Part shown: positions 1-4,530 of the stretch, piece after piece
How the letters are laid out: every line of letters begins with the position of its first letter
Numbering within the stretch: the first letter of the stretch is position 1
From: a virus
Taxonomy: Duplodnaviria; Heunggongvirae; Uroviricota; Caudoviricetes
Direction: 5' to 3' (one strand)
IMG/VR virus record: IMGVR_UViG_2657245448_000001
DNA length: 4,530 bases
Notes under the pieces: generated by a model
What the model was told of the DNA's origin: nothing
Seen by the model: only the letters and a program-made list of their open reading frames with translations
The model's database searches: none
Made by a program: the position numbers and the translations under genes

Positions 1-406
1 AAACCGGTTGACGTTCAAGGAAATCGGCAGGTAGCGGGGATACTGACTGATAGCCGTCATAGATTTGTGGCGGCTGTTCAGTATGCAGCGGTAACATCGC
101 CAGGTCGCACTCTCGGTCACCCCAGTAGCAGGCCGGGTCGAAAATGTACTGATCCACGACTAACGCATCCGGCACGCTGTTACTGGCTTTTACCTGCAAC
201 CAGACCAGCACCAGATCGCCGCTACGTAACGAGTCCAGCGATTTGCAATCACCATCTTTTCCCAGAAATTTTATCTTCTGTGATGTGACAGTTTCACCGT
301 TAATAACAGTCATTCCGTCACCGGTCATCGTGTAGTTGCCGCACTGAATTGCAGCCATCGCCGGAGCAGTAACCATCATAACTAACGCCAAACATAACCG
401 TTTCAT
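1..406 (-). CDS. 5'-complete, 3'-truncated ORF (at least 135 codons): secreted small protein N-terminus running in frame into a fructosamine-kinase-family C-terminal segment; probable prophage/host junction ORF
   Basis: Hand translation of the minus strand from ATG (plus 404-406) to position 1 gives no stop: MKRLCLALVMMVTAPAMAAIQCGNYTMTGDGMTVINGETVTSQKIKFLGKDGDCKSLDSLRSGDLVLVWLQVKASNSVPDALVVDQYIFDPACYWGDRECDLAMLPLHTEQPPQIYDGYQSVSPLPADFLERQPV... Residues 1-18 are a classic Sec signal peptide (MKR, hydrophobic core, AMA before the likely cleavage site). Residues 87-104 (YIFDPACYWGDRECDLAM) match the conserved C-terminal motif of the fructosamine-3-kinase family. The ATG overlaps the upstream gene stop (TAATG) and is preceded by AGAGGG. 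It is absent from the ORF track only because it runs off the window edge. Confidence 0.6.
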   Translation of the reverse strand, partial: MKRLCLALVMMVTAPAMAAIQCGNYTMTGDGMTVINGETVTSQKIKFLGKDGDCKSLDSLRSGDLVLVWLQVKASNSVPDALVVDQYIFDPACYWGDRECDLAMLPLHTEQPPQIYDGYQSVSPLPADFLERQPV

Positions 407-1470
407 TAAAGCCCTCTTTCCCTCGCTGATGAGGAAACAAGATCCGCCGCGCCACGCGCTTCACACATCATATCCATGTACCACGCCTGGCCCCTTGTGT
501 CGCCAGTGTACATAATCCCGCGCACAATATAAACGCCATCCGTTGCGATGCTGGCAGGCTGCGATGTGGTGCCGCTGAGCGTGATATTTCCGTCCGTGTT
601 CTGGTCGGTGATCTGACCACCAGCCATCGCAATATCGTTGTTCGACAACGCGGTACGATAGACGGAAGCCTGATCCAGCTGAATGAGCCCGTTAACCCGG
701 ATGTTCGGATTAATAAGCGCGCGGACGTTTACGCCGTTACCGATAGTCTGCTGCGGCATTCCAATAAGCCCGGTAGCGCTGTTGAGCACAATCGCTTCGT
801 GAACATATTCGTTATTCACCACCATCTGGCGCTGACCGTCCACGAATTGCCATGTTGCGCCACATTGTCCGGCTACGTTATCCATTAGATGCCGCGTCAT
901 GCCAAAGAGTACCCGCCCCCGGGGGAATACAGTAGCAGGCATTTCAGGCGTCAGGCCTTCGGTCGCGCCTTTGGCTTCGAAGTCTTTCATCAGCGCACGG
1001 TTCACATCAGCGACCGTGTAACCGGCAGCCAGCGTCTGTGAGGTTATACTGGTAGCAAAAGCCAGATCAGTATCTGCTGCCTGAATCAGGACGTAGGTAT
1101 CAACCGGACTGTCTTTTCCTGTGACCGAGTAGCGAATTTCACCGCTGAAAATCAGTCCGTAGTTGCGGCCATCTCTCTGGCCCACGTCCGCCGCGTCAAC
1201 TTCCCGCACGGTCCCTACGTCGCTTGCTGACACCTCCGGCGCGATACCGTCGTAACCGGCAATCAGACGCACTTTCGAAAACTCCTGCCCGGTAATTCGG
1301 TTCACAGTATCTGCCGAGAGGTTATAAATTTTGATAGTCCCTACCCGGGACGCGCTGCTGATGTTGAACCAGTCGATCGTAAAGGTGACTTTGAAATCAC
1401 TTAGCTCAATTCCCTGACCGTTCCCGTCCACAAGCTGCAGCTCGAAATGTCTCATCCAGTTCTGTGACAT
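406..1470 (-). CDS. phage tail/baseplate protein, 354 aa (possibly gpD-like baseplate hub; family not confirmed)
   Basis: Complete ORF with ATG start (plus 1468-1470) and TAA stop (406-408). GGAG sits 5 nt upstream of the ATG, and the start lies 2 nt after the stop of the preceding gene. It is the third gene downstream of the tape measure gene in a coupled operon. The product call is positional inference; I do not recognise the sequence itself. Confidence 0.7.
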   Translation of the reverse strand: MSQNWMRHFELQLVDGNGQGIELSDFKVTFTIDWFNISSASRVGTIKIYNLSADTVNRITGQEFSKVRLIAGYDGIAPEVSASDVGTVREVDAADVGQRDGRNYGLIFSGEIRYSVTGKDSPVDTYVLIQAADTDLAFATSITSQTLAAGYTVADVNRALMKDFEAKGATEGLTPEMPATVFPRGRVLFGMTRHLMDNVAGQCGATWQFVDGQRQMVVNNEYVHEAIVLNSATGLIGMPQQTIGNGVNVRALINPNIRVNGLIQLDQASVYRTALSNNDIAMAGGQITDQNTDGNITLSGTTSQPASIATDGVYIVRGIMYTGDTRGQAWYMDMMCEARGAADLVSSSARERGL

Positions 1471-1472
1471 GC

Positions 1473-1775
1473 TTACTCCGTTGATACCAGTAAATGGCTG
1501 CGACCGCCCAGGTCAGTTTTTGTGGGGTAATCCTGTGTGTTGTCATCACAGACCACCACCAGCTTAAAACCAAGCCCCATACAGGCGTACTGCGCCAGCA
1601 GGTCAGCACCAGTGACGAGAGGAATACCGGAGATTACCGGCTCCCCTCTGTCGTTCTGCAGGTCCATAATCCAGTACAGATCGCGCCATATGATGCTAAT
1701 CCGCCAGGTGACACCACCCAGGACGATGCTGAACTGCTGGTTGTCCGCTGTCAGCGGAATTTCCTGAATTGTCAT
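1473..1775 (-). CDS. small phage tail protein, 100 aa (hypothetical)
   Basis: Complete ORF with ATG start overlapping the upstream stop (TAATG at 1773-1777) and a GGGGGG run about 8 nt upstream. TAA stop at 1473-1475. No recognisable LysM-type motif. Confidence 0.6.
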   Translation of the reverse strand: MTIQEIPLTADNQQFSIVLGGVTWRISIIWRDLYWIMDLQNDRGEPVISGIPLVTGADLLAQYACMGLGFKLVVVCDDNTQDYPTKTDLGGRSHLLVSTE

Positions 1776-2362
1776 TAGCCGCCCCCCAGTAATGACGCCA
1801 CGTTACCCGTGATGCTTTTCAGCAGTGAAGTATCTGGAGGCTTTGTGGTTTTGTTGCCGCTGTTCTGTACCGCCGACGTGCTGGCCCCTTCCTTCATGTT
1901 GGTTTTATCCGCGACGGTAATCTGCTGTGTCCGGGAGATAATGACCTCCCTCAGGGTGAGGACGGCGGACAGGACGTTTTCGGTTGTCTTGTCCGTCGTC
2001 ACTTCCAGCGCCCGGATCAACATGTTGCTGTACAGCCGTTTACCGGTTACCACATCGAAGGGGATACGGCTTTCCTGCAGACCCAGTAGCTCCTGATACG
2101 TCTGCTGAGGACTCAGGCCGAGCAGGCTGGTAGCCGTCAGGTTACTGGCAAAATCCAGCAATGCGCCGCCACCGGCGAAACCAACCTCCATCACCACTTC
2201 TGACGGTTTTTTATAGGCATGATCAGCGACAGCGGCCCCGACCTCTACCGGATGCTCTGTTATTTCAAGCATATCTGTATGCTTCTCTGAAATAACAACA
2301 CTGGGAACAATCATTCCTATTTTTCTGCTCTGCTGATGAAAAAGTGTAGAGAGAATATCCAC
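1775..2362 (-). CDS. phage tail protein, 195 aa, immediately downstream of the tape measure gene (possibly gpU-like tail-completion/baseplate component)
   Basis: ORF opens with GTG (plus 2360-2362) overlapping the tape measure TAG stop (TAGTG), with a purine-rich GAGGGTGGG stretch upstream. The first in-frame ATG (codon 17) has AGGA directly abutting it, so GTG is the more likely start. Stop TAA at 1775-1777. Confidence 0.6.
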   Translation of the reverse strand: MDILSTLFHQQSRKIGMIVPSVVISEKHTDMLEITEHPVEVGAAVADHAYKKPSEVVMEVGFAGGGALLDFASNLTATSLLGLSPQQTYQELLGLQESRIPFDVVTGKRLYSNMLIRALEVTTDKTTENVLSAVLTLREVIISRTQQITVADKTNMKEGASTSAVQNSGNKTTKPPDTSLLKSITGNVASLLGGG

Positions 2363-4503
2363 TAACCCACCCTCACCTGATTACTTCGCATGACCTGAGC
2401 ATTTGCAGACTGTTGCCGACGTGCAACCTCATTACCGACAGCGTGCGGATCTCCGCCACCGTAAATGTGGTAGGTATTTTGCTGGTTAACCTCTGTCACT
2501 TTGCCACTAATTCCCGCCACGGCAGCCTTATTAATCAGCTCTCGAGAATAGATATTTCTTCCATTCTCATGCTGGATAATGCTGCTCATCAATGCTGACA
2601 TGGTTTGCGGATCGCTCATATTCAGGGCAGCCCGGGGATCCACTCCCAGTCGTTGCGATACAGCCCTGATATACGCTGTTGTGTTGTTATTATCAGACGC
2701 AGGTGCCCAGGTAGAGATAATTTTCTCCACACTGTTTATTCCCCGTCCGGCGTACAGCATTAACTGACGAGCAAGAGCCCGTAATCCATCAAAGGCAGTT
2801 TCAAATCTGGCAAATCGCCCGCCCGGGCGTTCAAGAGAAGCCCCTGCCTGACCAGCAAAATTAAGGTTTCCCGGATTGTTATTCCGTTCTCCTCGTTTCG
2901 TAGCCTGTGCATATTGTTCCGGCTCAGCACCTGGAATATCTGACTGAATATTTGCGCCTTTTACGGTATGAGGATTACGACCAAAATCGGTATCAATGCC
3001 AAGCCAGCGCAATGAATCTCCAATATTTTGTTTCGTGTAATCCCAGGATGACTTCGCACTGGCACCAATATTTTCGCGATCAGAGTACAAATACGCAGCA
3101 TAAGCCATCCAGCCTTTTAACCACGGCGGGACCGGCAAACCTGATATTTTCCCGAAAGCCCCCAGAACCCTGGATACCCAGACACCCGCGATGAATGTAC
3201 CAAGGATTTCCAGTGCATTTTGCCAGCCGCCAACACCATCTTTTAGTTCCAGAAGGTGATCACGAAGCCAGGTGATCGCATCCTTCGCTTTATCTATTGC
3301 CGGTTGCCATTTTTCCCAGTCGATAAGACTGTTACCGCCTTCTTTCCATGTTTTGTAGTCTTCCCACAAGAGACCGAGAGCCACGATCAGACCGGTAATC
3401 AGCCCTATAGGTGACATCCAGAAAGTAGAGTTAAGTATCCGCATGGCGACAACCAGACCGCCGATAACCTCTATCAGGGTTTTCGTTTCGGCATCCAGTT
3501 TCCCCCACCACTCGATGATATCTCCGACACCATCGACTATCCGAAATGCTACCCGCCCGACTATCTCACCCAGCCAGAGGATCCCCTTTATGACCTTTGT
3601 GATGGTGACTTCAATTTTGGGAAAATTTTCAATTATCTTTTTGCGCAGGTTATCAATCTGCCCCGCCAGTCCGTCCGCAAGATTCGATCCGATTTTGTCC
3701 CGCGCCATCCTGGCCATTTCACCGAGCGATTTCAGCGAGGTCATAAACCGGTTTGACGATAAGGCAGCCTGATCGGCATTAAATCCGATCGCTTTCACCA
3801 TTTCTGAATACTGAGCGCTGAACTGCCCCACTCCGCGACGCATAGCCATCAGGGTATTTTCGTCAATGCCCAGCATCTGCGCATACTGGTTAGCCCGGTA
3901 ATACGGCATGCTGCTGAGTTTCTGTCCAACGCCCGTAAAGATAGCAGCCATGTCACGCATGTTACCGCTGGCATCACGGGTCTGTACGCCCAGGCGATTC
4001 AGAAAGCCTTCTGCTCCGGGATTGTTACGAATAAACCGGGAGAGGCTTTCCAGAGAAGATCGCGCAGCGTCCACACTGCCGCCAACCTGCGAAACCGCAT
4101 AGCCAATAGACTGAATTCCCTGGACCGTCGCGCCGGTGCGCTGTGACGCCCAGTAAAGATTATCCAGGCCGGAGGCGATCTTAGCCGTGAAGGCCACCAC
4201 GGACAGCGCAGCCCCTTCAACAGCCAGCCCCATTTTGATGACATTTGCAGTTGTACCGGCGAGGACAGAACCGAACTTTTTCGCTCCTGCATCATCCACA
4301 CGGAAGCCAAGCGAGACGAGGAAATCTTTAATAGTTTCAGCGTTAGCTCGCCACGTCGCGACCTGGAGTGAATGGCTGCTTGCCAGGACGGCTGATAAGC
4401 CCGAACAACGTGACCGTGGACGGCGGTGGTCCGACCCACAGCGTGTAGTTGCCCTGCAACGGCGGGTTACCGCGTTCGGCAACGCGGACGATATCGGGAT
4501 CAA
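2362..4503 (-). CDS. phage tail tape measure protein (up to 713 aa; true start uncertain)
   Basis: Long ORF with typical tape measure organisation. Residues 45-300 are Ala/Gln-rich and predicted helical. Two Trp/Gly-rich hydrophobic blocks follow (about residues 307-380 and 425-475, nt 3364-3585 and 3079-3231). The gene sits directly after a chaperone-like frameshift arrangement. The TTG start at 4503 is the ORF-track start, but the first 44 codons are Arg/Cys/Pro-rich and look like an out-of-frame read. No canonical start with a Shine-Dalgarno sequence sits where protein-like sequence begins (about 4370). Confidence 0.85.
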   Translation of the reverse strand: MIPISSALPNAVTRRCRATTRCGSDHRRPRSRCSGLSAVLASSHSLQVATWRANAETIKDFLVSLGFRVDDAGAKKFGSVLAGTTANVIKMGLAVEGAALSVVAFTAKIASGLDNLYWASQRTGATVQGIQSIGYAVSQVGGSVDAARSSLESLSRFIRNNPGAEGFLNRLGVQTRDASGNMRDMAAIFTGVGQKLSSMPYYRANQYAQMLGIDENTLMAMRRGVGQFSAQYSEMVKAIGFNADQAALSSNRFMTSLKSLGEMARMARDKIGSNLADGLAGQIDNLRKKIIENFPKIEVTITKVIKGILWLGEIVGRVAFRIVDGVGDIIEWWGKLDAETKTLIEVIGGLVVAMRILNSTFWMSPIGLITGLIVALGLLWEDYKTWKEGGNSLIDWEKWQPAIDKAKDAITWLRDHLLELKDGVGGWQNALEILGTFIAGVWVSRVLGAFGKISGLPVPPWLKGWMAYAAYLYSDRENIGASAKSSWDYTKQNIGDSLRWLGIDTDFGRNPHTVKGANIQSDIPGAEPEQYAQATKRGERNNNPGNLNFAGQAGASLERPGGRFARFETAFDGLRALARQLMLYAGRGINSVEKIISTWAPASDNNNTTAYIRAVSQRLGVDPRAALNMSDPQTMSALMSSIIQHENGRNIYSRELINKAAVAGISGKVTEVNQQNTYHIYGGGDPHAVGNEVARRQQSANAQVMRSNQVRVG

Positions 4504-4530
4504 GATTGATTTTTTGCCTGCCCGTCACTT
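4343..4530 (-). CDS. 3' end of the gene upstream of the tape measure gene, probably the -1 frameshift extension of a tail assembly chaperone (lambda G/GT or P2 E/E' type); 5' end outside the window
   Basis: This frame is open from the window edge to TAA at 4343-4345 (VTGRQKINLDPDIVRVAERGNPPLQGNYTLWVGPPPSTVTLFGLISRPGKQPFTPGRDVAS). The tape measure frame, which is +1 relative to it, ends a separate upstream ORF with AAG-TGA at 4530-4525. The GTG at 4528 is the first codon read after a -1 slip on a heptamer ending in AAG. There is no convincing ribosome-binding site for independent initiation. Confidence 0.45.
   Translation of the reverse strand, partial: VTGRQKINLDPDIVRVAERGNPPLQGNYTLWVGPPPSTVTLFGLISRPGKQPFTPGRDVAS
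4525..4530 (-). other. last sense codon (AAG) and TGA stop of a small upstream ORF in the tape measure frame; candidate 3' part of a -1 slippery heptamer
   Basis: The minus strand reads AAG TGA at 4530-4525. The -1 frame continues open for 61 codons. The heptamer 5' part lies outside the window. Confidence 0.35.

Follow-up and report, generated by a model that had tools for sequence, protein, structure and literature searches.

The inner baseplate of contractile tails has been described for cyanophage Pam3 and for phage P2. In Pam3, gp17 is the tube initiator, gp18 is the plug, and gp19 is the hub (PMC9942802). The gp19 trimer bears the spike, and the gp17 hexamer sits atop the hub and seeds the tube. 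Six gp18 monomers lie between the hub-spike complex and the wedge, and release goes with contraction (PMC9942802). The P2 tail has gpU as its hexameric tube initiator, gpX, with the LysM fold, as its glue protein, and gpD as its trimeric hub (bioRxiv 10.64898/2026.09.14.750843). The order of tape measure, tube initiator, small adaptor, and hub is common to the P2-type and the Pam3/Brunovirus-type contractile tails, despite their different protein families. Gene size and gene order alone, therefore, cannot place a tail module in the P2 lineage.

The window, that is, the whole stretch of 4530 nt analysed here, carries such an order of genes (Table 1). It is highly likely that positions 249-4344 of the window are a 4096-nt slice of a known temperate Escherichia coli myovirus prophage, and that the operon end seen there is technical. 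Encoded in the slice are the tape measure and the inner baseplate core (tube initiator, plug, and hub), followed by the beginning of a small signal-peptide-like protein. These genes are already known; they are the same as those of deposited phages and prophages, and their Pfam families are named after solved structures. The operon end flagged in the first-pass annotation, which was based on the sequence alone, is an assembly artefact and not a real prophage boundary.

Table 1. Features of the window and the matches that identify them.
Feature	Position	Strand	Evidence
yjbG internal fragment (GfcC-family capsule protein)	4345..4530	-	100% identical to yjbG of many E. coli genomes
Tail tape measure gene, codons 2-661 and stop	2362..4344	-	phrog_2276 at 5e-265
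Tube initiator, 195 aa, Pam3 gp17-like, Pfam Dit_like	1775..2362	-	PF21821 3e-33; phrog_817 1e-69; PDB 7yfz_a 4.9e-18
Baseplate plug, 100 aa, Pam3 gp18 family	1473..1775	-	PF22479 6e-25, full length; PDB 7yfz_h 1e-3
Baseplate hub, 354 aa, Pam3 gp19/SEN34 hub type	406..1470	-	phrog_196 2e-88; PDB 7yfz_t 3e-12
First 53 codons of the 111-aa phage gene, phrog_3443	249..406	-	Identical residues in L001 19823-20158
Scaffold gap	247..248	.	NN in CDRV01000231.1, AA in the window
yfhM internal fragment, 96 nt (alpha-2-macroglobulin), native frame	151..246	-	100% identical to L002 401-496
yniA internal fragment, 149 nt (fructosamine kinase family), native frame	1..149	-	100% identical to L003 401-549

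All long ORFs of the window are on the minus strand. The tape measure ORF ends at 2362, and ORFs of 195, 100, and 354 aa follow it. Their sizes and order had been given correctly in the first-pass annotation. Strong family matches for each of the three indicate that they are real genes. Their products match consecutive chains of a single solved baseplate, PDB 7YFZ, and, judging from these matches, they are the counterparts of the tube initiator gp17, the plug gp18, and the hub gp19 of Pam3. The score of the 100-aa protein against PF22479 is 88 bits, versus a cut-off of 24 bits. The same protein also matches gp84 in PDB 9zd7 at 2e-4, and its name in RefSeq is "phage baseplate plug family protein". 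For the hub, the match to Pam3 gp19 (7yfz_t) covers residues 100-295, and the match to PF22759 (E217_GP41; 5e-5, 23 bits) is under the 27-bit gathering cut-off. The homologue of the 354-aa protein in Salmonella phage SEN34 is annotated as the baseplate hub. Residues 22-89 of the hub also gave phmmer matches to designed WD40 repeat proteins; these are considered spurious, as no stretch is individually significant.

The natural tape measure protein is 661 aa long and starts with MNAETIKDFLV. Its part in the window is 100% identical to positions 22114-24096 of the natural prophage locus L001. The natural ATG, at the window-equivalent positions 4347-4345, is lost to the yjbG sequence; exactly the ATG is missing. 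Due to this loss, the public gene call of the tape measure starts at the internal GTG at 4299 and yields 645 aa instead of the natural 661 aa. The long ORF of 713 aa is an out-of-frame read-through into the yjbG sequence. Towards its C-terminus (about 2497-2898, minus strand), the tape measure includes an endolysin-like domain. It matches Gp29 in PDB 9vvp at 2e-20 and Endolysin in 7q47 at 1e-13, as well as phrog_873 and phrog_7182 ("tail injection transglycosylase"), and is without a Pfam model. From this similarity, the domain may confer a cell-wall-degrading activity that is delivered along with the tape measure.

The megablast search against 5426 complete E. coli genomes revealed positions 249-4344 in one unbroken piece in 59 of them, with 100.0% identity in 20 of the 20 matches listed. 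There are 0 mismatches over the 4096 nt between the window and L001. The natural prophage is about 40 kb in length, intact, and next to yfhH (e.g., NZ_AP022003.1). In NZ_AP022003.1 and CP041359.1, the genes are ordered as follows: neck terminator, sheath (PF11863/E217_gp31_N), tube (PF11681), chaperone (PF21822), DUF6889, tape measure (661 aa), tube initiator, plug, hub, 111-aa ORF, 170-aa ORF, spike (PF18352 and Apex), sheath initiator (PF10934), Baseplate_J, Phage_Wedge1, 264-aa fibre, fibre assembly proteins (TAP), an invertase-associated alternative fibre tip, and the host gene yfhH. Upstream of the tail block, the natural copies have terminase, portal-like DUF1073, head morphogenesis, major capsid (DUF2184), lysis, antiterminator Q, and repressor-type genes. 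The synteny of the Pam3/Brunovirus type is seen in the natural loci L001 and L005 and in SEN34, while the window itself holds only the part from the tape measure to the hub.

This natural context bears on several claims of the first-pass annotation. It had taken the operon to end after the 354-aa gene, with no fibre genes nearby and with baseplate and fibre genes grouped in another operon. The natural copies inspected all have these genes directly after the hub, in the same operon and the same direction, and the fibre and its chaperones are encoded downstream, outside the slice seen in the window. A tailocin, also proposed, should be free of head, portal, and terminase genes. The natural element, as judged on the identical copies, has terminase, portal, capsid, lysis, and regulatory genes; it is a complete temperate myovirus and not a tailocin. 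The sheath and tube genes, for which the first-pass annotation advised a search, were found upstream in the natural context. Its exclusion of a lambda-type siphovirus was right, as the tail is contractile, with genes for the sheath and the sheath initiator in the natural copies.

Two further observations were made in the natural prophage. At the prophage end (L001 13779-15478 and L008 2731-4481), a DNA invertase gene, which is a partial pseudogene in L001, lies beside opposed genes for the fibre tip and fibre assembly. By analogy with the G segment of Mu or the C segment of P1, this appears to be an invertible segment for host range. A small DUF6889 ORF separates the tail assembly chaperone from the tape measure and overlaps the start of the latter (L001 24089-24729). 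In analogy with E/E' of P2 or G/GT of lambda, it could be a frameshift extension of the chaperone.

The interval 1-406, where the operon seemed to end, contains the start of a fourth phage gene. The TAA of the hub gene shares one base with an ATG at 406-404, from which the frame is open on the minus strand to base 1. No terminator-like site was found in positions 1-700 of the window. The overlapping ATG, the open frame, and the lack of such a site indicate that the interval is coding-like throughout and is not the intergenic end of an operon. The first 53 residues of this ORF are identical to those of the 111-aa protein encoded next after the hub in the natural prophage, and the phage identity extends to base 249. 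The full-length 111-aa protein matches phrog_3443 at 3e-53, and its N-terminus is signal-peptide-like: MKRLCLALVMMVTAPAMAA. The scaffold gap truncates the phage gene after 53 of its 111 residues.

In the frame of 135 codons in this interval, the 53 phage residues are fused with some 32 residues of YfhM and some 49 of YniA, and all three pieces are read in their native frames. In the public gene call, the fused frame is listed as a product of 135 residues, and this chimeric "protein" is probably already present in protein databases. The slot between the hub and the spike is variable. It holds the ORFs of 111 aa and 170 aa (phrog_19013) here (L001 19314-20158) and unrelated ORFs of 77 and 138 aa in SEN34 (L009 8188-8859). 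It may be a moron or accessory slot within the baseplate operon.

The mosaic structure of the window was resolved by ungapped alignments to natural loci, in which each of the yniA, yfhM, prophage, and yjbG pieces is 100% identical to its source. Base 150 is an orphan T that matches neither of the neighbouring pieces, and base 4344 is common to the phage piece and the yjbG piece. A TAA that arises at the join closes the native frame of yjbG. In complete E. coli genomes, yniA, yfhM, and yjbG are three unlinked loci. The first-pass annotation had placed a host junction within 1-406, and non-phage DNA does begin inside this interval; it is, however, a mosaic of unlinked gene fragments attached through an NN gap. 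Nor is the join the right end of a prophage next to attR; it is a scaffold artefact at which the phage gene is cut at codon 53.

The source of the window was traced by looking up the 645-aa tape measure product that starts at the GTG at 4299. It is found in exactly one record, CDRV01000231.1, a scaffold of the draft assembly GCA_000937355.1, and the window corresponds to this 4530-nt scaffold in its entirety (range 1-4530). The tape measure products with starts at 4503, 4482, and 4233 had no matching record. The sole differences between the record and the reverse complement of the window are the NN at window positions 247-248. The join between the phage and yfhM pieces is thus an unsequenced scaffold gap, for which AA stands in. 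Ambiguous bases were seemingly turned into A in the window, masking the scaffold gap in the raw sequence.

No host scrap extends farther than 250 nt from a scaffold end. At its two ends, the scaffold breaks off in yniA and in yjbG, genes that are each matched about once per complete genome. A genuine attachment junction is expected to show a contiguous host flank from a single locus beside the terminal phage gene, and no such flank is present in the window. The natural insertion site of the prophage adjoins yfhH, in contrast to the yfhM, yniA, and yjbG fragments of the window. The pattern is that of chimeric tips or mis-scaffolded mini-contigs of a short-read assembly and not that of an att site. 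We infer that the host scraps are chimeras that arose in the assembly or the library and do not reflect real joins in the DNA. The prophage piece would have been joined through the NN gap to a 246-nt chimeric scrap (yfhM and yniA) and directly to the 186-nt yjbG scrap at the other end.

With a length of exactly 4096 nt (2^12), the phage piece begins right after the ATG of the tape measure. Either chance or the assembly pipeline may account for this length. The exact length had raised the suspicion of an in-silico or generated chimera, which was dropped as an explanation, as the public scaffold makes the origin by assembly simpler.

Alternatively, the joins could be real, and the window could represent a degraded 4.1-kb prophage remnant (tape measure to hub) that was fused by illegitimate recombination, in frame, to duplicated yfhM/yniA fragments on one side and to yjbG on the other. 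Across both of the left-hand joins, the phage gene, yfhM, and yniA all stay in their native frames, so that the minus-strand frame is open from 406 to 1, and all four pieces are on the same coding strand. We estimate the shared frames and strand as a roughly 1-in-70 coincidence for random chimeras. The dead ends of the scaffold inside yniA and yjbG are not proof of an artefact either; contigs would break inside real duplicated fragments as well, since these would stop the assembler if intact copies are present. Against these points, the join between the phage and yfhM pieces is NN in the deposited record and, hence, was never sequenced. The fusion needs three independent joins of 96-186-nt scraps from distant chromosomal loci within 4.5 kb, and the scraps are all at scaffold ends. 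At the other end, the ATG, and nothing more, is missing from the tape measure gene, whose frame is not that of yjbG. None of the junctions is spanned by any of the 5426 complete E. coli genomes. Each of the two sequenced joins was also absent from one public collection: the 36-mer of the yniA/yfhM junction from 185,579 species-representative genomes, and the 34-mer of the tape measure/yjbG junction from a metagenome contig collection. The absence of the 35-mer of the phage/yfhM junction from both genome and metagenome contigs carries no weight, as the pattern included the stand-in AA and was unable to match. A remnant fused in this way is thus considered very unlikely, and the chance that all of the joins are real is slim. 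If they were, the isolate could keep only a 4.1-kb orphan tail-core cassette amid duplicated host fragments, with a phage signal peptide fused in frame to segments of YfhM and YniA. Such a cassette would be an unusually scrambled prophage remnant, and its probability is slimmer still. The reading of the window as a slice of the yfhH prophage with chimeric ends carries a caution for other data: on a short draft scaffold, chimeric scaffold ends and N gaps silently turned into bases can fake a prophage boundary.

The first-pass annotation had assigned the same region to a P2-type (Peduoviridae) prophage, at its right end, or to an R-type tailocin, with attR after T, U, X, and D and with ogr lost. 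The sizes of 195, 100, and 354 aa and the order of tape measure, tube initiator, small protein, and hub do resemble T-U-(X)-D, and P2 has ogr, a terminator, and attP after D. The families of the proteins, however, are different. In a Pfam run at E<=10, gpU and gpD of P2 (NC_001895) served as positive controls; gpU matched PF06995 at 4e-44 and gpD matched PF05954 at 6e-27. In the same run, the window proteins showed no match to PF06995 or PF05954. The 195-aa protein matched only PF21821, and the 100-aa protein matched only PF22479, with no match to LysM/Phage_tail_X in this run controlled by gpU and gpD. The profile check against the gpU, gpD, and gpX families, which the first-pass annotation had suggested, was therefore negative. 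BLASTP of the 195-aa protein against gpU (E=1.4) and of the 354-aa protein against gpD (E=0.21) was not significant in either case. The negative results of the 195-aa protein for PF06995 and of the 354-aa protein for PF05954, with the controls positive, reject membership in the P2 lineage; the window proteins belong to the families of Pam3 gp17, gp18, and gp19.

The gene organization also speaks against the P2 type. A P2-type operon is expected to stop after the hub gene, while the next phage gene overlaps the hub stop here, with no terminator, and the identical natural copies go on with spike, wedge, and fibre genes and include a full head module. As the operon end is artefactual, the absence of ogr is uninformative on the P2-type reading. 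The family tests and the natural context together refute a P2-type right end or tailocin, which is given practically no probability. From the likeness to T, U, X, and D, the same roles in the same order stand, while the protein families differ; the module works like T-U-X-D without belonging to the P2 families. A siphovirus tail tip, which could be suspected from the names of the families of the 195-aa protein ("Dit-like" for PF21821 in Pfam, "tail fiber protein" for phrog_817 in PHROGs), is equally improbable and is refuted by the sheath (PF11863/E217_gp31_N), sheath initiator (PF10934), and Baseplate_J genes that flank the module in the natural copies; the closest solved homologue of this protein is the tube initiator of the myophage Pam3, the window proteins match no Dit/Tal/J-type families of siphovirus tips, and no Tal/J-like protein is present.

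With the window read as part of the yfhH prophage, the function of its proteins can be proposed on the model of Pam3. The hub trimer would bear the spike and would be topped by a hexamer of the 195-aa tube initiator, which would seed tube polymerisation round the tape measure. Six copies of the 100-aa plug would be wedged between the hub-spike complex and the wedge ring, and the plug and the hub-spike complex would be released alongside sheath contraction. Both the stoichiometry and the mechanism are carried over from Pam3 by homology. In the natural prophage, the operon extends about 6 kb past the hub, through the spike, sheath initiator, wedge, and fibre genes, and the invertible fibre-tip segment and then yfhH come next.

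The nearest deposited sequences are those of the vB_EcoM phages. In vB_EcoM-689R2, -606R2, and -611R5 (ON470582, ON470579, and ON470588), positions 249-4344 of the window are present in one unbroken piece with 100.0% identity, and in vB_EcoM-683R1 (ON470593), they are matched in two pieces with 100.0% identity. These records and the prophage at yfhH have the same tape measure, tube initiator, plug, hub, and 111-aa ORF as the window. Unlike the window, the natural copies have the start codon of the tape measure, the full 111-aa gene, and all of the downstream baseplate and fibre genes, and they are free of the yniA, yfhM, and yjbG fragments. The deposited "complete genome" of vB_EcoM-606R2 (ON470579.1; L008 1-1002) includes the host gene yfhH and a phosphatase fragment. 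The vB_EcoM records thus look like excised prophage regions with host flanks rather than packaged genomes. A literature search for vB_EcoM-689R2 and GCA_000937355.1 returned nothing on either of them.

Among classified phages, the nearest relative is Salmonella phage SEN34 (Brunovirus SEN34, NC_028699), with about 82% nucleotide identity from the tape measure to the hub. Yersinia phage YP3 shows about 88% nucleotide identity over the same genes. SEN34 shares the order of sheath, tube, chaperone, tape measure, initiator, plug, hub, spike, wedge, and fibre. It differs in the ORFs between the hub and the spike (77 and 138 aa versus 111 and 170 aa here) and in the fibre and integration modules.

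The gene order of the whole baseplate is common to Pam3 (PDB 7YFZ) and the prophage, although the homology between them is distant. At 354 aa, versus 229 aa in Pam3, the hub here has some 100 additional aa in its N-terminal region and is also longer at the C-terminus. The prophage also differs from Pam3 in the two extra small ORFs between the hub and the spike, the enterobacterial host, and the temperate lifestyle. The end of the P2 F operon (T, U, D, ogr, and attP) and PA0625-PA0628 of the R2 pyocin show the same order of roles in a contractile injection machine. The P2 protein families (PF06995, PF05954, and LysM) differ from those of the window proteins. P2 keeps its spike, wedge, and fibre genes in another operon and has ogr, a terminator, and att after D, whereas in the E. 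coli prophage, the spike, wedge, and fibre genes follow the hub directly.
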